This document shows, in pieces, positions 8,017 through 15,079 of a stretch of 64,000 nt of DNA. How positions within the stretch are numbered: the first letter of the stretch is position 1; each line of letters starts with the position of its first letter. The position numbers were made by a program, and so were the translations under genes. The DNA comes from Synechococcus sp. (GTDB lineage: Bacteria > Cyanobacteriota > Cyanobacteriia > PCC-6307 > Cyanobiaceae), in contig JBJBEO010000001.1 of assembly GCA_047284725.1 (NCBI GenBank), positions 1,144,203 through 1,208,202 of the forward strand, given 5' to 3'. The notes under the pieces were generated by a model, which did not search any database, was not told the DNA's origin, and was given only the letters and a program-made list of their open reading frames with translations.

Positions 8017-8595
8017 GTGGGGCTTGTGCGTCAGAAAGCTGGTGTGATTGCAGGTGTCGCGCTATCAGCAGCTGCCTCTTGGCTCTCTGTGGAGCCGGTT
8101 CTGGCCGGAGCCAGCGCACGGGGGTTTGTCTGCGGTGTCGCCAATGGTGCTCCAGCCACCAACGCCCTGAAAGCTGATGGCACGCAGATCCCTGTGATCC
8201 GCTGGACCAGCAGCACGTTCACTGCTGCCGGCTGGGGTCCGCAGCGTCGCTGCGAGGAGGTGTCCGAACGGTTCGACACCTATCTCAAGCAGGGACGTCT
8301 GGCCTACATCACCACAGGACGGATGAATCGACTGCCTGTGATCTGTACAGCAGCGAGCAAGCGTGGCCCCTGCGATGGCTTGCTCTACACCCTGAAGCCT
8401 GGTCAGAACGCCACCGCCACGTTGAAGGACTTGTTGCAGATTCGGGTCAAGGCACGGGGACCACTGAATGAGACCAGTGGCAGGCTCTACGTGAGTCTCG
8501 ATGAGCTGATGACCGCGTCCGAGGCCAGCACCGATGCTGTGATGGCACCCGAGCTCTCAGACACGTCGACTCAGCCCACGACTCCCCTCTGGTGA
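8017..8595 (+). CDS. COP23 (circadian oscillating protein) domain protein
   Basis: FVCG...PAT...IPVIRWTS..F..AGWGPQRRCEEVSERF...YITTGRMNRLPVICTA...LLYTLKP; signal peptide; start approximate. Confidence 0.85.
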   Translation: MGLVRQKAGVIAGVALSAAASWLSVEPVLAGASARGFVCGVANGAPATNALKADGTQIPVIRWTSSTFTAAGWGPQRRCEEVSERFDTYLKQGRLAYITTGRMNRLPVICTAASKRGPCDGLLYTLKPGQNATATLKDLLQIRVKARGPLNETSGRLYVSLDELMTASEASTDAVMAPELSDTSTQPTTPLW

Positions 8596-8906
8596 GGCTG
8601 TGCCGGAAGGTCCGCCGTGTGGCCAAAACAACGTTCGTGATCCCTTCACAGTTGTCTTTCTTTCATTCAGGAGGACGCGTCAGTCGTCGTTGTGATTGCT
8701 CGGTTCGTGGCCATGGGGTTCCAACACTTTTCGCCAGACCCGGCGAGGGTGCTTACCGCAAGGCATGGACTTGATGCGTGATTGTGTGATTCGATCAACG
8801 ACTGGTCTGATTGGATTTGCGCAGCTTCATCAGGTGATGCAGCTTTTGTTCGGCAGAGCTGTCGCTGCATTTCAGGGCTATGTTTTGAATCCTGTTGGCA
8901 TTCTCA

Positions 8907-9332
8907 ATGCCTGAATCGTCTTGCTTGAGCTGGCCTCAGTTGTTCAAAAGGGCAGCAACGAAACCGTTTGACTATCGGTCAACCTCATCAAGGGCTGAGT
9001 ACTGGGTCTTTGTGATTTCCATGGCAGTCGTGCAGGCCATTGTGTCCATGATTGTCACCATCGGTACGGCGTTCTATGTCTATGCCTCCACGGCCCCTGA
9101 AAGCATGGGTTCCGAATCGTCTGGGCTGATTTCGGTGGGAGTCCTTTTGTCGGTTGTAAGTGTGCTTAATTTTCTGATAAGCATCTATATCATTCTTGCT
9201 ACATCTGCGCTTGCCAACCGACGACTGAGAGACCTCCAAATGAATACCTGGTTGACGCCCTTGTTCCTGATTCCTTGCCTGAATTTTATCCTTGCGCTTG
9301 TTTACTTCACGAGGAAAAGGGCTTTGGCATAA
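8907..9332 (+). CDS. DUF805 family membrane protein
   Basis: FDYRSTSSRAEYW and ALANRRLRDL motifs; 3 TM segments. Confidence 0.85.
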   Translation: MPESSCLSWPQLFKRAATKPFDYRSTSSRAEYWVFVISMAVVQAIVSMIVTIGTAFYVYASTAPESMGSESSGLISVGVLLSVVSVLNFLISIYIILATSALANRRLRDLQMNTWLTPLFLIPCLNFILALVYFTRKRALA

Positions 9333-9444
9333 CCGCTTGAATCGGCATCTCGGACTGCTGGAGTGCTGATTGAGCGACATATTCAGAAGCCTGGCACGAA
9401 TGGACGACTTTGAATTCAGGTTCTGCGCGATCGTCGTGGGTCGC

Positions 9445-9501
9445 TTACAGTTGTCATGAGCGAAGCGAGTGGAAGCTATTCGGTTGATCCAATTGTTCTG
9501 C
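9445..9501 (-). repeat. Degenerate/truncated attC (last cassette)
   Basis: Minus strand, 8 nt after the stop at 9509: GCAGAAC-AATTGGATCAACCG...CACTCGCTTCGCTCATG. This looks like an R''/L'' arm with the CGCTTCGCT loop common in attC sites; no 3' GTT arm found. Confidence 0.5.
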
Positions 9502-9508
9502 TACACCA

Positions 9509-9970
9509 TTAGTTGGAATGACCTTGATTGCCGTACCAACCTCCTGTGTCACCCCCAATCCAAACTTTATGTTTGAATTGGGGGAAATATTCATGACAAA
9601 GACTTAGGATGTTATCGTCTTTAGTTATGTTGTCGCCCTTTTTGTAACCTTTTGGGTAAAAGATTCTATCAATATATTTGCCTTGTACTCTTATCTGGCC
9701 GATGACGTAAATTCCATTGCCTACCCCGTATACGGAGCCTTCTTTTTGCTTTGTGTATACTGCTACATATCCACCGTCAGCTTTTGTGTAATGGTTAATT
9801 GTAGGCAATATTCGTCTTTCGAGGCCTGGTAAGGGATAATTGATTGCTATATTTTCCTTTACGTAAACTTTAAAATCACGTGGCAAAAGATTGCTTGTCG
9901 AGATTCGAGGATTACCAGTGCAGCCTAGTGTAGTGAGGCTAAGTGCAATGAAGAGTGTCAATTTTTTCAT
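9509..9970 (-). CDS. Cassette-encoded putative lipoprotein, unknown function
   Basis: AT-rich; ATG 9970 MKKLTLFIALSLTTLG-C lipobox; C-terminal WIGGDTGGWYG. Confidence 0.8.
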   Translation of the reverse strand: MKKLTLFIALSLTTLGCTGNPRISTSNLLPRDFKVYVKENIAINYPLPGLERRILPTINHYTKADGGYVAVYTKQKEGSVYGVGNGIYVIGQIRVQGKYIDRIFYPKGYKKGDNITKDDNILSLCHEYFPQFKHKVWIGGDTGGWYGNQGHSN

Positions 9971-9979
9971 ATTTTTTCT

Positions 9980-10084
9980 TTCTATTTTGTTGAAAGCTGC
10001 CCCGCAGTGGCAGGCAGAGAGTTTGTAGTGGCGAAGGAAGAAGATTATTGTTGGTGGTCTGCCTACTTGAAGGACTTGTTCGAT
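9980..10084 (-). repeat. Degenerate attC
   Basis: R''-like ATCGAAC-AAGTCCTTCAAG 18 nt after the MazG-like stop; internal stem AGGCAGA/TCTGCCT. GTTCGATGC matches this cassette's 5' GTTAGAAGC at 7/9. The R' GTT is eroded. Confidence 0.45.
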
Positions 10085-10101
10085 GCCCATAAAGGCTAGG
10101 G

Positions 10102-10419
10102 CTAGATCTCGCCATCGACTAAGAAGAGGCGCCTCTGAAACCCGCCTCGCGTTTCGGCCTTTTGCCTTCGCACGACCTCAAGCTCCTCCAAGGTATGGCC
10201 CTTGGCCACGCAGAGAGCGCGGATGACTTCAAGGGTGTCTGCCAACTCCTGAATGTCGCCACTACTCTCGGAAACCTCGGTGACCTCTTCGTGGAGTTTT
10301 GCAATGAGTTGTGCCACGTATTCGTCGTCGCGCAACTCCCGGACGGTGCATGCCTTTCCGGCAGCTTCCATGACCTCAGGGATTCGGTCGCGGACAAGCT
10401 TGTTGTAGGTCTTTCGCAT
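10102..10419 (-). CDS. MazG-like all-alpha NTP pyrophosphohydrolase (COG4997 / PRA-PH-like)
   Basis: YNKLVRDRIPE, KLHEEVTE, ELADTLEV and R.QKAETRGGF motifs. Confidence 0.9.
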   Translation of the reverse strand: MRKTYNKLVRDRIPEVMEAAGKACTVRELRDDEYVAQLIAKLHEEVTEVSESSGDIQELADTLEVIRALCVAKGHTLEELEVVRRQKAETRGGFQRRLFLVDGEI

Positions 10420-10427
10420 CTAGAGGC

Positions 10428-11462
10428 TTACAGCAGGGAGTTGGCGACAAATGAGTTCGCTGGTCGCCAGCGACTTGGTATCGCGTTGATAGCGAGCTGG
10501 TCGCATTGCTGAAGGAAGCTCGCGCGTTTCTGCTTGGTGGCACCGGTCTGCGCAATCAGCGTCTCGCGGAGTGGGTGGTGGCTGTCTATGAGCCAGTTGT
10601 TCCTCACGTTCAGGCGCTCAAGGTACTCGATGTGTGGGATGAGGTCGAATTTTCCACCTGGGCCACGGTTGCACTCTGTGCAGGCCAGAACGAGGTTCCA
10701 TACACCGTCGATATTCAAGCCACAAAACGGCTCGGCATGGTCGAGTCGCTTGGGGAAAAAGTGGTCGACATCGGCGTCCAACGTCTCACTACGGTCGATG
10801 GTGATTGGTTGATGGCAATAGAAACATGTGCCTTTCTGATACCCGTTTAAAGCATCGCGCACTCCGGCTATTGACACCCGACGAGTTGCGTCAGTCGCGA
10901 TGAAAAGCTCGCCAATCTCAATGTCTGTTCTTACTTCCAACACGCGCGAAGGCACTCCAAGGTTCCAGGCCGTCTCAACTAGACGCCATCGTGCTTCCGC
11001 CTCTAGCGCCAAGCTGTTGGCCTGCGTGTCCGCCATGAGTCGTCGAAACTCTTCAGTGAGCCGGATTCCTTTGGCTGTCGCACGCTCGTCGTGGAAGAAC
11101 CGAATTGGTACATCTGAAGAGCCGACGATGTGAAATGCATCGATGACATTGTTGAAGCCACGCCTGACGGTCTCCATGCGTAGTTGATCGGCTGAGAGTT
11201 CGCCGCGGTTGAAGTTGCGACAGGCGTCGAGAAACACGCTTGAGCGCGAGGTCGCTTGTCGATCCGCGGAATTGAGGTGTCGGGCGATCTCCCGAGCGAA
11301 AGGTACCGCGAGATCATCAAGGCGGACGAGGTCATCGGTTGCTGGGGCGAGCTCAACCAACGAGCGAGCGAGGGCAAACTTGTATGACGCGACGTTTCGA
11401 CCAAAAAGGACGATCGCCCGCCAGCAGGATGCGGGATTCGGCTTGCTCTCAATGAATGTCGT
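10428..11462 (-). CDS. HNH endonuclease; start codon reads ACG
   Basis: CFYC...DVDHFFP...WNLVLACTECNRGPGGKF HNH core. The frame stays open upstream of the track's start (WRAIVLFGRNVASYKFALA) back to ACG at 11462, with no in-frame ATG/GTG/TTG before the TAA at 11496-11498. Confidence 0.88.
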   Translation of the reverse strand, partial: TTFIESKPNPASCWRAIVLFGRNVASYKFALARSLVELAPATDDLVRLDDLAVPFAREIARHLNSADRQATSRSSVFLDACRNFNRGELSADQLRMETVRRGFNNVIDAFHIVGSSDVPIRFFHDERATAKGIRLTEEFRRLMADTQANSLALEAEARWRLVETAWNLGVPSRVLEVRTDIEIGELFIATDATRRVSIAGVRDALNGYQKGTCFYCHQPITIDRSETLDADVDHFFPKRLDHAEPFCGLNIDGVWNLVLACTECNRGPGGKFDLIPHIEYLERLNVRNNWLIDSHHPLRETLIAQTGATKQKRASFLQQCDQLAINAIPSRWRPANSFVANSLL

Positions 11463-11515
11463 GGTCGAGGCGCTTCGGATGCACCCCGATTCTACTTAAG
11501 CCGCTTTCTCGATGC

Positions 11516-11596
11516 TTCTAACGCCCAAGCTGTGCGGCGCAAACGAAGCGCAGCGTAGTTTGCGTCCGAACGAGCGGAACGAGCGCCTTGTTAGCT
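11516..11596 (-). repeat. attC site (81 bp)
   Basis: Minus strand AGCTAAC-AAGGCGCTCG...GCAAACTACGCTGCGCTTCGTTTGCG...CAGCTTGGGC-GTTAGAA; imperfect palindrome; the upstream gene's TAA lies inside R''. Confidence 0.93.
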
Positions 11597-12438
11597 ATTT
11601 TTGAATACATGATTTCGATGGTGCTCCATATAACCCATTAATCTGCTTGGCACCTTCCTCAATTTGAGATTGCCAGCCAATCCAAGTTTTCAATGTCATC
11701 TTGTGATAGTTGAGGGGAAATCATTGCTATACCGGCTTCATCGAATGTGATTAGTCCCAAATCAAACAAGTGATCTAATGTGGGTTGCAATAACAGCCCA
11801 TTCATTGGGTCAAGACGCTCTTGATTGGATGAATCTCTCCACGGTTTGATATGCGAGGCTCGAACCACAGAGAGATTGCCTAACCCAGTAACTGAGCAAC
11901 TTCCCCATACTTCAACTACACCATCCCTGAACAAGCCCTGCCCGATGCGACTCTTTACGATTGATTTTTTTTCAGTTTGATCTAGCGATTTGAATTCATC
12001 CTTGTGCGCTTCGATATCGTCAAACATGTCTGGACGTTGACTTTTGTTCCCGACCGAAAACACAAATTGACTGGGTGACGAGCTAAGGCGGCGATGTTCT
12101 TTTAGATGAATCTGTCCGCAATACACAAATGGCGTATGATGAATGTCTCGATAAAAGAGGTGTATTTCATCATTCACAGACTCTGCATTGATCACTCTGT
12201 TGTCTGATGAATGCTTTTCTTCGCCTTCTCAGTGAAGCAGCTCGCCGTCTAAATAATCATTGTATTGAGTTAGTGCTTCTTGTTTTTGTTTTGTGACAAA
12301 CAGGATGATGTATTTAGTTCCTGATGGCGTTACAACGCCCCTGGAAATAGCCTGAAACCCTTTGTAGCCCCAAATATCAGCCAGGGATGGCCGCTCATAT
12401 TCTTGCCCAATTTTCAGTTTTTCAAGGCTGACTGGCAC
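11591..12438 (-). pseudogene. DUF3427/SRA(PUA)-like domain + HNH endonuclease (putative modification-dependent restriction), inactivated
   Basis: ORFs 12229-12438 and 11659-12195 share a frame and are separated by TGA in LLH*EGE (W expected). C-terminal RIGQGLFR...CSVTG...ASHIKPW...NGLLL...DHLFDLG HNH. A 1-nt frameshift near 11685 hides the tail ...LRKVPSRLMGYMEHHRNHVFKNS*, which ends in the attC R'' box. Confidence 0.85.
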
Positions 12439-12454
12439 GGTATTTCCTTTTGAT

Positions 12455-12612
12455 GGCTAACAGTGTTTCGGCGGACAGTAGAAGTTGCTAATAGTTGATT
12501 TTTTGCTGCATAAGCTGGCAATGGCAGCTTTCCCCCAAGATCAACACCCCAGCTCTAGCAACAATTTTAGCGGATTCCACTCCTCGCATGGATTGTTATG
12601 CGGACCGCAAAA
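12455..12612 (-). repeat. Second attI-like module with attC-like internal symmetry
   Basis: 147 bp from GGCTAAC (12455) to GTTATGC (12601). Both ends align with 13215-13372. Nested stems GTTGCTA/TAGCAAC, GTTGAT/ATCAAC, AAGCTG/CAGCTT. Confidence 0.75.
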
Positions 12613-12707
12613 GCTCTTCAACGCTTGGTTGCTTAGCTGAAGGCCATAATCCTTATGGAGACCATTTCAAGTCATTCATATGGGGCGATTGTTGGTCGCT
12701 TAATGGT

Positions 12708-12809
12708 GCCTAGCGCCCCGTTTAGCGGCTTTTTATAGTTGGCTAAAATAACGAACGCAATGAGGGAAGCCAACTATTAAAAGTCCCAGCCTGCAACGCC
12801 TTGTTATAT
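12708..12809 (-). repeat. attC site (102 bp) with mutated R' core (GCTAGGC)
   Basis: Minus strand ATATAAC-AAGGCGTTGCAG...TTTTAATAGTTGGCT...AGCCAACTATAAAA...AAACGGGGC-GCTAGGC; the gene's TAA lies inside R''. Confidence 0.9.
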
Positions 12810-13208
12810 GTGTTGAACACCATTCCATCCATTTCGGTTTATGATTTTAAACTTTGAATCGTCTTTGCTGTAGCAACTAGACTTTAATGATGAAAAGTCT
12901 AGGTTGTTTCGCGGAACCTCAAAGTATTCAAAAACCTTGTTGCCATCGGTAGCAACCAATAAAGTAATACCATCTAGTGTGTGAATTTTACTTTTTGTCT
13001 CGATGTCGAACTTAAAGCCTATTAGATCTTCCGCGCTTTGGTTGTTTGAATAAGGTGTAATTATGCAAACTTGTTTCCAGTTCCCTCTTATCTCTATTGA
13101 TAAGTCGACAAACTCTTTTGAATGGTCAAAAGTTCGTTCTGGAGCTTCGCCCACCTTGGAGCAAGAAATCAATAATATCACTAAAATAACAGTCAGACAC
13201 TTATTCAT
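12804..13208 (-). CDS. First cassette: putative lipoprotein, unknown function
   Basis: ATG 13208 just after the core site GTTATGT; MNKCLTVILVILLIS-C lipobox; WKQVCIITPY motif; very AT-rich. Confidence 0.82.
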   Translation of the reverse strand: MNKCLTVILVILLISCSKVGEAPERTFDHSKEFVDLSIEIRGNWKQVCIITPYSNNQSAEDLIGFKFDIETKSKIHTLDGITLLVATDGNKVFEYFEVPRNNLDFSSLKSSCYSKDDSKFKIINRNGWNGVQHI

Positions 13209-13214
13209 AAACAC

Positions 13215-13372
13215 ACATAACAGTCTTACGGCGGTCCGCACAAGCTGCCGCCAGGCAGCTTATGCGGCAAAAAAATCCGTTTGAATCACCTCTCAGGAAC
13301 CAATTACCTACTTTTAGCAAGACCACCGCACCCCATCCAAGCCCGGCTTGGTTTGTTACCAGGACCGCAAAA
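13215..13372 (-). promoter_or_regulatory. attI region, downstream of the intI 3' end
   Basis: Core GTTATGT at 13221-13215 matches the first cassette's R'' (ATATAAC) at 6/7; hairpin CCGCATAAGCTGCC/GGCAGCTTGTGCGG; lies between the intI stop and the first cassette. Confidence 0.78.
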
Positions 13373-13383
13373 CATCCTCGGGT

Positions 13384-14358
13384 TCAGAGCAAGTCCGCGG
13401 GACTGCGGACGACTGATGGACCGCGATTCAGCACATGGGTGTAGATCATCGTGGTCTTCACATCGCTGTGACCCAGCAGCTCTTGAATCATGCGGATGTC
13501 GGCTCCCTGCTCCAGCAGGTGTGTGGCAAACGAATGGCGGAAGGTGTGGCAGGTGGCTGGCTTGCTGATCCCCGCCGCCTGCACGGCAGCACGCACGGCC
13601 CGCTGTACCAGGCTCGGATCCAGGTGGTGTCTCCCCTCCAGTCTCTGCCGGGGACTCCGCCAACGGCGGCATTAGGGAAACAGCCATTGCCAGGCCCATT
13701 CCCTCGCCGCATTTCGGTATTTCTTCTCCAGGGCATGGGGGAGCTCCACCGCACCCCAACCCGCTGCCAGATCGGCCTGGTGCACACTCCTCACGTGCTG
13801 CAGGTGCCGTTGCAAGGGCTCCACCAGGCTCGAGGGAAGCACGGTGCGCCGGTCCTTGCCTCCTTTGCCGCAGCGCACCGTGATGCAGCACTTCTCCAGG
13901 TCCACATCCTTGATCCGCAGCCTTAGCGCCTCCATCAGCCTCAGTGCACTTCCATAGAGAAGCTGGGCCACCAGGGCCTCGGCTCCGCCCAGATGGCCAA
14001 GCACGGCCTTTACTTCATCCACCGTCATCACCACGGGAAGGCGCGCCCGTCTGCGGGCTCGGATCACACCCTCCAGGTTCCCCACATCACCACCCAGCAC
14101 CGTGCGATAGAGAAACAGCAAGGCCGCCAGCGCTTGGTTCTGCGTGGAGGCACTCACTCTCTCCTCTGTCGCCAGATGACTCAGGAACGCATTGATCTCT
14201 GCCTCCCCCATCTCACGCGGATGACGCATCCGTTGAAAGCGCAGGAATCTCCGCAGCCAGTGCTCATAGCTCGACACTGTCCGGCGTGCGTAGTGCCTCA
14301 CCTGCAGCTCTTCCCGGTAGCGCTGGATCAGGCCCGGCGGCTGGTTCGGGTTGGCCAT
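13384..14358 (-). pseudogene. intI: Integron integrase with an in-frame nonsense codon
   Basis: HYARRT, VSASTQNQALAALLFLYR, LLYGSALRLME, GKGGKDRRT, the IntI-specific patch AGWGAVELPHALEKKYRNAAREWAWQWLFP, then TAA (13672-13674), then in-frame [12 protein letters not shown]...[12 protein letters not shown]...[16 protein letters not shown]. Confidence 0.96.
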
Positions 14359-14499
14359 CGATGGGGTGTCTGCGCAAAGGGAGTGTTCCCCCACTTCGAC
14401 AATCATCAGCAACAGCTGTTCACAACATGGATTGGCGATACCTCCCTGCGCCCCGCCTGATACGCCTTGCTAGCGATTGGGCGGCTCCGAGAACCGTTT

Positions 14500-14900
14500 T
14501 TGCCGTCGAACATTGCCATTCCCATTCACGCTCGGCTGGGGTATTGGCGACCTAACGCATCGGCAATCAGGACCTGCCCCCAACCGGCCTTTCGATCACG
14601 CTGGTGAAACTTGCGAACATCACTTAGATGGCGTGCCAGTGCTGGGAACATGCTTTGTGGCAAGAGCGTCAGTCGATCCTTCCCCCCTTTGCCATCGCGC
14701 ACGCAGAGCTCTCGCCGCTCGATGCTGATGTCTTTGACGCGCAGGCTTAAGGCCTCCATCAAGCGCAACGCACTGCCGTTCAGCAATCCCACCACCAGCC
14801 TTGGTGAACCCTGCAGTGTCGCGTTCGAGCCCGGATGACGGAATCCAACACCAAGGGTTTGCCGAGCAGTTCGCGATCGAGAAACAGCACTGCAACTGGA
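14500..14900 (-). pseudogene. intI: Second, divergent integron integrase remnant
   Basis: Three frame-shifted pieces: AVLFLDRELLGKPLVLDSVIRARTR / LLNGSALRLMEALSLRVKD...GKGGKDRLTLLP...AGWGQVLIADALGRQYP / REWEWQ. The N-terminus and catalytic C-terminus are missing. Confidence 0.9.
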
Positions 14901-15079
14901 TTGGGGCCTCCGTTGGCTGTCATCGTCTGGGCCGCTGGCCAGGAGCGGATTGCTGTTGACCGATGCAACGCTCCTCCTCGTCGGCCATTGCCTAGAGCGC
15001 AGCAACGTCTTCTCGGTCCACAACCACGTGCGAGACGGTTACGGTCTCGTCGTGAGGTCCGGGGTTTTAGGGAATTGCC

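Follow-up and report, generated by a model that had tools for sequence, protein, structure and literature searches.

Layout of a co-oriented integron with two attI-like modules

We analysed an integron within a stretch of 64,000 nucleotides (nt) of Synechococcus sp. DNA (contig JBJBEO010000001.1, positions 1,144,203 to 1,208,202; hereafter the window), and in particular a module inside its cassette array that resembles the attI site beside the integrase gene. The genome that carries the window is 2.58 Mb long, lies on a single contig and has a guanine-plus-cytosine (GC) content of 59%. All features of the integron lie on the − strand, and their coordinates are written in descending order where direction matters. 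Read along this strand, the integron consists of intI, a proximal module, cassette 1 with its attC, a leader, an internal module, and an HNH_2 cassette with its attC. Because the cassettes and intI run in the same direction, the integrase is of the co-oriented ('inverted') kind, with attI on the 3' side of its gene. We conclude that the internal element is very probably a true homologue of attI and not an attC, and we give a probability of roughly 0.55 to the fuller reading, in which it is a second attI carried on a mobile 253-nt unit that has no open reading frame (ORF).

The proximal module (13215..13376, subtype A1 as defined below) starts 8 nt past the stop codon of intI. Its left box lies at 13376–13355, its middle box, which is inverted, at 13275–13256, and its right box at 13249–13222; the crossover falls between G13221 and T13220, within the R box GTTATGT (13221–13215). 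The internal module (12455..12616, subtype A2), recognised by its homology to intI-proximal modules, has its left box at 12616–12595 (..TTTTGCGGTCCGCATAAC), its middle box at 12517–12499 and its right box at 12488–12462, with a crossover between G12461 and T12460 inside the R box GTTAGCC (12461–12455). Its boxes read as three direct repeats, which are conserved across 28 aligned modules. R1, a sequence-only model of the last 85 nt of the module, matches both copies, the internal one at 31.5 bits (E 5.6e-8) and the proximal one at 28.3 bits. The internal copy is not adjacent to intI: its R1 match starts 854 nt 3' of the intI match, and cassette 1 and its attC lie between them.

The integrase gene (13384..14358, TIGR02249) is a pseudogene of the co-oriented type. 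Its translation, read through with X, scores 457.5 bits against TIGR02249 (cut-off 265) and contains the Pfam domains Phage_integrase and SAM_4; the frame is interrupted by one in-frame TAA (13674–13672, residue 263). The closest named carriers of this integrase bear the labels Synechococcaceae, Cyanobium, Synechococcus and Vulcanococcus, and relatives of IntI occur in 43 of 151 family genomes, the window's own counted. The whole genome holds no other, intact copy of intI. Its second copy (contig 382115–382885, − strand) is heavily degraded, lying in pieces in several frames that are 40–78% identical, and is accompanied by its own A2 attI (C381) and by a cassette for a 205-aa protein with a hydrophobic N-terminal stretch that we read as signal-peptide-like. 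Most of 24 loci carry a conserved motif (GGGGAACACTCC, GGGAACTCTGA, GGCAACTCTGAG, GGGAATCCTCAG) about 30–45 nt upstream of the intI start, at about 14380–14392 in the window; present in this position throughout the family, it is a candidate for a regulatory site.

Cassette 1 (12714..13220) contains a 134-aa ORF (13208–12804) with what we read as a lipoprotein-like signal; it has no Pfam or NCBIfam match. The cassette is closed by attC1 (12809–12708), which has the R'' box ATATAAC, a 15-bp stem (12783–12768 / 12744–12729) and a degenerate R' box, GCTAGGC (12714–12708). A single 190-nt attC from 12806 to 12614 was considered in place of attC1 and rejected, since its 3' 100 nt are the conserved leader that starts at a crossover in a related genome, G358. 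Cassette 2 (11516..12460) encodes an HNH_2 endonuclease (ORF 12438–11659; PF13391, E 1.1e-11) interrupted by a single in-frame TGA (12231–12229), and its attC (11596–11516) has R'' AGCTAAC and R' GTTAGAA. Two nonsense codons lie within 1.5 kb of window sequence, the TAA in intI and the TGA in the HNH_2 ORF. A crude attC finder of our own, which required AAC...GTT ends and a fold, passed none of the window's attCs and was not used.

The attI module family and its internal member

A module following the stop codon of a co-oriented intI is recognisable in 25 of the 30 related loci that we fetched. At these 25 loci the distance from the stop codon to the GTT is 139–183 nt, mostly 165–174 nt, and the module itself measures about 160–170 nt. 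Alignment of 28 modules reveals three directly repeated boxes (left, middle and right), followed by ..AAA.ACTGTTAG, which is the junction with the first cassette; the module ends in the consensus ..AAA.ACTGTT, with the crossover at ..ACTG^TTAG (the caret marks the point of exchange). The sequence of the boxes varies with the integrase group, being GCTTATGCGGACC in type A, GTGGTTCACGGAACC in type B, and GGATACCGGACCC or TATTATGCGGGTCC in others. Type-A boxes go with IntI proteins at least 81% identical to that of the window, and the other types with IntI proteins at most 74% identical to it. The parallel with attI1, which has DR1, DR2 and, beside the crossover R box, an L box, leads us to infer that the three boxes would be binding sites for IntI. 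All 20 further loci have one module match adjoining intI, with an insertion between intI and the module in one of them. At L022 / L085 (G106), a transposase-like ORF lies between the intI stop codon and attI, and the module is displaced about 1.4 kb from intI.

Ten type-A modules, compared over 150–160 nt, fall into two subtypes. A1 comprises the proximal copy of the window, the attI of genome G092, an orphan in G123 and module M3 of G358, with mutual identities of 65–71%; A2 comprises the internal copy, two further copies in this genome (C1754 and C381), the attI of G310, an orphan in G398 and module M4 of G358, with mutual identities of 60–77%. Between A1 and A2 the identity is 48–64%. The proximal module is 71% identical to the attI of G092 over 161 nt (E 7e-19), and the IntI of G092 is 88% identical to the window's, with no stops in the match. 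The internal module is 67% identical to the attI of G310 (158 nt against 158 nt), 73% to M4 of G358 and 70% to C1754; G310 has an intact intI ORF of 324 aa whose product is 81% identical to the window IntI. The initial annotation had suggested that a foreign attI was captured here, and the comparison bears this out: the homology of the internal copy to modules beside intI in relatives extends from end to end, and its subtype is A2, unlike that of the window's own intI-proximal site, which is A1. It does not fall into an ordinary attC family unrelated to intI-proximal regions.

That annotation had started from two 147-bp spans, 12455–12601 and 13215–13361, each running from a ..TAAC box to a GTTA.. 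box, and both are present as described. Their ends align (16 of 19 positions on the left and 28 of 37 on the right, the right-end repeat having also been detected independently as D1, 44 nt at 73%), TAGCAA stands 40 nt before the GTT in both, and the 19-mer TTTTTTGCYGCATAAGCTG occurs in opposite orientation in the two, as the inverted pair I1 (12499–12517 / 13256–13274; 18 of 19 positions, or 95%, complementary). The semi-global alignment score of the pair is 12.5, compared with 2.7 ± 1.6 (maximum 11.5) for 1000 shuffles and 2.9 ± 1.6 (maximum 11.0) for 3000 random 147-mers from the genome; neither set contains a single case that reaches the observed global or local score, and the similarity thus exceeds that of shuffled controls. 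The spans are real, but the true repeat unit is longer, the module extending from 12616 to 12455 and the conserved unit described below from 12713 to 12461. Only the alignment of the ends had been seen, because the copies belong to different subtypes (A2 and A1). The motif in opposite orientation is the middle box, which is forward in 12 of the 13 type-A modules viewed and inverted only in the proximal copy, where it (13256–13275) pairs with the right box to form a 13-bp hairpin.

The resemblance to attC that had been read into the internal copy, including three nested stems, did not survive folding. The two strands reach −16.2 and −15.0 kcal/mol (z of 0.13 and 0.47) with the ends unpaired, and 101 of 200 and 135 of 200 shuffles, respectively, fold at least as well. 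By contrast, canonical attCs of G358 reach −23 to −24 kcal/mol in 84–100 nt, two of the three forming a hairpin from end to end, as against −15 to −16 kcal/mol for the 147 nt of the internal module. The proximal module has a fold z of −4.3, which is due to the single local 13-bp hairpin made by its inverted box. RNAalifold found no consensus pair in the 28 aligned modules. Sequence and not structure is therefore conserved in these modules, which is the opposite of attC and is what would be expected of a double-stranded protein-binding site. Nor does its structure support an attI/attC hybrid: the module forms no hairpin, only the end boxes GCATAAC ... GTTAGCC resemble R'' and R', and the left TAAC box of the internal copy aligns as a direct repeat of the ..AAAC in the right-box region, not as an inverted partner. 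The proposed match between GCATAAC and the start of the preceding cassette, G(C)TAGGC, amounts to 5 of 7 positions as a complement, the same as for any box of the lineage consensus.

The cassette junctions carry a record of past recombination. When a cassette is inserted by an attI x attC reaction, the bases that follow the G^TT of attI are the right half of the cassette's own R' box, and they are therefore complementary to the R'' box of that cassette. We compared the 9 nt that follow the G at each of this genome's four attI copies with the reverse complement of the R'' box in the attC of the adjoining cassette, and they agreed at 8, 8, 9 and 8 of 9 positions (cassettes 1 and 2 of the window at 8 of 9 each); 12 cross pairs with the R'' boxes of other cassettes gave 5–6 of 9. 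Matches of 8–9 of 9 with the own attC indicate that each of the four crossovers has been used, and hence that the integrase cut at the internal GTT. The earlier idea of a second insertion point holds as history, given the 8 of 9 at the internal junction, but such a junction cannot tell the entry of a cassette from the entry of an attI unit.

Similar layouts are also found in more distant company. A planctomycete-labelled locus (L106) has the same three-box layout 3' of a co-oriented intI, with boxes TTAT.C.GA.CC, and Treponema-labelled loci (L112, L130) have a ..AATAAATGTTAGG end at a similar distance from the stop codon; a three-box attI may be general for the co-oriented integrase clade, beyond cyanobacteria. 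A separate observation concerns the far side of the crossover. At L068, L061, L063, L043, L050 and L104 a conserved TTGAACTAAGCCGCT.CGCGGCAGATT follows immediately after the GTT of attI; at L068, and also at L093 and L095, the sequence after the GTT leads to another tyrosine recombinase gene, whose product is about 30% identical to IntI; and many contigs break about 100 nt past the GTT. The conserved sequence after the GTT looks like a mobile element that targets attI.

A leader-module unit, its recurrence and its possible mobility

The internal module is preceded by a conserved non-coding leader of about 100 nt (12617..12713; TTAGGC..GAGCAAC..TTGAAATGATCTCCATAAGGA..), which starts at the attC1 crossover. 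The leader recurs at L074 8975–9074, 9990–10098 and about 12915–13048, and in this genome at contig position about 1754360–1754460. It is common to units M4 and M3 of G358 and to C1754, is found before type-A modules of A1 as well as A2, and occurs by itself after M1, the attI of G358. Positions 12716..12448 of the window are 80% identical to G358 over 270 nt, and the flanks on both sides are unrelated. In G358 the shared sequence opens with G^TTAGGC, which is the R' box of an attC that folds well, and it extends a few bases beyond ACTG^TTAGCC; in the window the unit has at its left end GCTAGGC, the degenerate R' box of attC1. Taken together, the homology limits in G358 and the crossovers of the window define a conserved unit of 253 nt (12713 to 12461) that consists of leader and module and lies between two integrase crossover points. 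Bounded by integrase crossovers on both sides, it is in effect an 'attI-type cassette' without an ORF. An ORF of 72 aa on the + strand (12495..12713) was dismissed as a gene: stop codons interrupt its frame in both the G358 and the C1754 copy, and the unit has no conserved ORF.

The same leader and module occur again at C1754, which stands alone at 1.754 Mb of this genome with no intI remnant nearby, and which is followed by a 758-aa ORF that we read as KAP-NTPase-like and by an 80-nt hairpin attC. C381, as noted, follows a degraded intI. On the 3' side of its intI, G358 carries four modules, all on the same strand and within 4.3 kb; two belong to type B, the type of this genome's own attI, and two to type A. 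In G092, one module stands immediately upstream of intI and another after it, and a type-B module lies 2.5 kb further into the array. A DNA search of 401 family genomes with the internal unit gave matches in at least 5, all of them in the window's genus, from which 29 genomes were sampled; the search scored two candidates per genome, which makes this count a floor. Beyond intI and attI, no synteny links the integron loci of the window, G358, G310 and G092. What speaks for mobility is the occurrence of the same unit, with the same two ends, between unrelated flanks in G358 and at a second locus of this genome.

If the unit was mobile, IntI would have bound the three boxes, as the analogy with attI1 suggests, and the unit would have been excised by exchange of its own GTT with the core of an attC or attI lying upstream. 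It could then have re-entered behind an attC by an attI x attC reaction in which circle and target exchanged their roles, or, by an alternative route, through attI x attI exchange. While the integrase was active, the array would have had two points of insertion and deletion, and exchange between the two attI copies would have deleted cassette 1. With a stop codon in intI, the second copy in pieces and no other found, the internal site is now a fossil, and nothing should move.

Modules of the family are not restricted to arrays. R1 matches 43 of 150 family genomes, in 1–15 copies each. When the intI and module tables are compared, in two samples that need not be identical, intI and the module occur together in 36 genomes, 7 contain intI alone and another 7 the module alone; a smaller search gave weak module matches beside intI in two of the genomes counted as having intI alone. 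Among the 150 R1 matches listed, out of 200, 37 are found no more than 600 nt 3' of an intI match, a further 2 at 0.6–10 kb 3' of one on the same strand, and 111 elsewhere; the intI table has a threshold of E ≤ 1e-40, so decayed intI genes are not counted. Downstream of orphan copies the GC content drops from 0.65 to 0.49 in all 13 cases with enough flank, and 11 of 12 intI-adjacent copies show the same polarity, so that in this respect the orphans resemble attI. Orphans in other genomes retain about 20–170 nt of an intI 3' end, their homology reaching −201 to −344 nt from the module end.

Several observations weigh against a mobile unit. The mobile reading does not account for the 100-nt leader. 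The left end of the unit in the window is GCTAGGC, not GTT, and in C1754 it is GATAGAT, with no attC upstream; in M3 of G358 the leader passes into the module without a GTT. Array-internal copies are uncommon: at 20 further intI loci, covered for up to 15 kb downstream (four loci being shortened by contig ends), no second module lies on the same strand, and G358 is a biased case, having come to light by its similarity to the internal copy. The varied left limits of the orphans fit the decay of platforms by deletion rather than the transfer of a defined unit. A double-stranded circle of 253 bp is physically awkward as an intermediate.

Platforms, by which we mean a 5' leader, intI and attI, are themselves nested in the window and in G092. 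Upstream of the window's intI lies a fragment of a different intI, of the G358 type (14511..14893, about residues 157–248; 55% by tblastn, and 75–83% by blastn to the G358 intI), together with the right-box remnant of a third attI, of type B (14475..14495; R1 8.7 bits, E 0.0015, in a 701-nt search with filters off). After this right box come GCTAGCA and then AGGCGTATCAGG.., the start of the intI 5' leader. In G092, the intI 5' leader has the same 5' sequence, AGGCGTATCAGG, and begins right after the GCG^TT of a type-C module, which lies with an intI 3' remnant directly upstream of intI. Window positions 13218–14467 are 85% identical to G092 (L077 9082–10333) over 1254 nt, only the leader, intI and attI being homologous, and different cassettes follow this A1 platform in the two genomes.

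Such nesting lends some weight to the chief competing account, which we consider unlikely: the internal module would be the static remnant of a fusion, in which two platforms stood in tandem and a deletion, either mediated by IntI at an attC or secondary site or illegitimate, removed the second intI and left its attI behind. The unit would never have moved, and its flanks would differ only through later cassette insertion at both attI sites. The debris of the third platform upstream of the window's intI (14511–14893, 14475–14495), the type-C module and intI 3' remnant directly upstream of intI in G092, and the orphans that keep 20–170 nt of an intI 3' end, with varied limits, are all consistent with this account. 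It would also make of the leader a decayed intI 3' end, and here the results are divided. In permutation tests of the leader against intI 3' ends, over 16 pairs, z ranges from −0.67 to 3.1, with 3 of 16 near 3, and one of the targets has a post-stop TGCCAAG in common with the leader; a profile of 28 intI 3' ends, however, found no match in the leaders with nhmmer at E ≤ 100. Further points argue against a static remnant: leader and module recur with the same ends at C1754, a second locus of the genome that is not an array; the unit occurs twice in the one array of G358, with two module subtypes behind the same leader; and no flanking sequence is common to the window, G358, G310 and G092 loci. 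The separate possibility that the leader is an intI 5' leader was examined and rejected (10 pairs; global z −0.83 to 2.9, local z at most 1.25).

A second alternative, which we find improbable, takes the module to be mainly a regulatory or protein-binding element (a promoter, a host-factor operator or an insulator), which would stand next to intI and end in GTT for reasons unconnected with recombination. Its left and right boxes form near-palindromes (TT.TGCGG-W-CCGC.A.AA), a shape that would suit dimeric DNA-binding proteins, each copy lies 15–30 nt upstream of an ORF start, and type-A copies have a conserved TTGCTA block. The internal promoter that the initial annotation had envisaged failed to appear, however, in a scan for the sigma-70 consensus only, which leaves other promoter types outside its reach (0 sites in 11400–13500, against 3.6 expected from shuffles), and Rfam gave no match over 8500–15000 at E ≤ 1. 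Moreover, the module co-occurs with intI (36 genomes with both, against 7 and 7 with one alone), its box type tracks the IntI type, and the signature at the cassette junctions is one of recombination. Least credible of all is the reading of the module as an attC of exceptional length, or as an attI/attC hybrid, that recombines in single-stranded, folded form: GCATAAC ... GTTAGCC, 147 bp apart, do loosely fit RYYYAAC ... GTTRRRY, and the unit start (C/T)TAGGC is a partial complement of GCATAAC (at 5 of 7 positions in the window and 6 of 7 in M4 of G358), but the unremarkable fold with unpaired ends (z 0.13 and 0.47), the absence of consensus pairs in 28 sequences conserved in sequence and not in structure, the left TAAC box that directly repeats the right-box region, and the complete attC that already closes the preceding cassette all contradict it.

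The mobile attI unit may be part of a larger pattern. The A1 platform is bounded by crossover cores on both sides, in two genomes and with different neighbours, and this is the basis for reading whole platforms as cassettes. We put forward the resulting picture tentatively and regard it as rather doubtful: throughout the co-oriented clade, attI would be a mobile module, and a whole platform (5' leader, intI and attI), as well as its derivative made up of leader and attI alone, would count as a cassette of 'attI type' that IntI moves at attI and attC cores. Such a picture would explain the nested platforms of the window and G092, arrays with up to four modules as in G358, and the 1–15 copies per genome, most of them remote from any intI and each at a step from core-like to low GC content.

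Relation to known systems and significance

Among 1685 class 1 integrons 96 carry delta-attI-type cassettes, as do 14 of 57 class 2 integrons, and both the excision and the insertion of such cassettes are carried out by IntI1; in these cassettes a piece of attI, mostly 14–18 nt, replaces the attC of an ORF-bearing resistance cassette, and the same source records an attI2 piece of up to 244 nt, one gene flanked by complete 65-bp attI1 sites, and exchange between classes (PMC12901181). Recombination of attI with attI by IntI1 proceeds at about 1.8e-4 (PMC7790495). Our unit resembles delta-attI cassettes as an attI-derived sequence that ends at the crossover G and lies in an array, downstream of another recombination site (attC1, then leader, then module to G12461), and the A2 module in the A1 integron of the window, like the type-A modules in the type-B integron of G358, recalls their transfer between classes. 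Unlike those cassettes, it carries a full three-box module of about 160 nt, has no ORF and has a complete attC in front of it; and it belongs to a sedentary chromosomal co-oriented integron of a picocyanobacterium, with many further copies over the chromosome.

The attI1 site of class 1 integrons spans 65 bp and consists of DR1, DR2, an L box and the R box GTTRRRY (PMC12901181). As in attI1, directly repeated boxes stand here upstream of a ..AAAC-N3-GTTRRRY core (minimal consensus AAACAAAGTTRRRY there and GAAACACTGTTAGCC here), a likeness of layout for which we claim no homology. Unlike attI1, the module is about 2.5 times longer, has its left and right boxes about 130 nt apart, and lies 3' and not 5' of intI. 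With attC it shares RYYYAAC-like and GTTRRRY-like end boxes and a place between cassettes; it differs from attC in lacking an imperfect palindrome, a hairpin and an architecture of extrahelical bases, and in the conservation of sequence rather than structure.

Orphans of the C1754 kind, a module and a cassette without a neighbouring integrase, recall the CALIN and In0 elements of IntegronFinder, which are likewise parts of integrons standing alone; a lone attI, however, falls into neither class (PMC4889954). The orientation of the window's integron is that of the co-oriented integrons of Treponema, in which intI is transcribed toward attI and the cassettes, and for which a single attI per integron is stated (PMC3607928).

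In a literature search to which supplementary tables did not belong, we found no description of attI modules inside or outside the arrays of sedentary integrons, or in cyanobacteria. To our knowledge, attI sites have been described for only a handful of integrons, most of them clinical. The present analysis defines a conserved three-box attI of about 160–170 nt for the co-oriented integrons of the Synechococcus/Cyanobium group, and shows that such sites are present in arrays and, much more commonly, stand by themselves in the chromosome, followed by a cassette or by DNA of low GC content. It extends the delta-attI kind of element from resistance integrons to sedentary chromosomal ones and suggests that docking sites, too, can move like cassettes. 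The subtypes A1 and A2 and the types B and C, each with its cognate IntI, are natural substrates on which the discrimination of attI sites by IntI could be studied. If the scattered copies are used in trans, the capture of genes by integrons in these abundant phototrophs would not be confined to one array, and surveys that count intI and attC clusters would miss most insertion points. Should the broader picture of attI as a mobile module prove true, a few integrases would serve many landing pads and would seed the variable islands of small cyanobacterial genomes.

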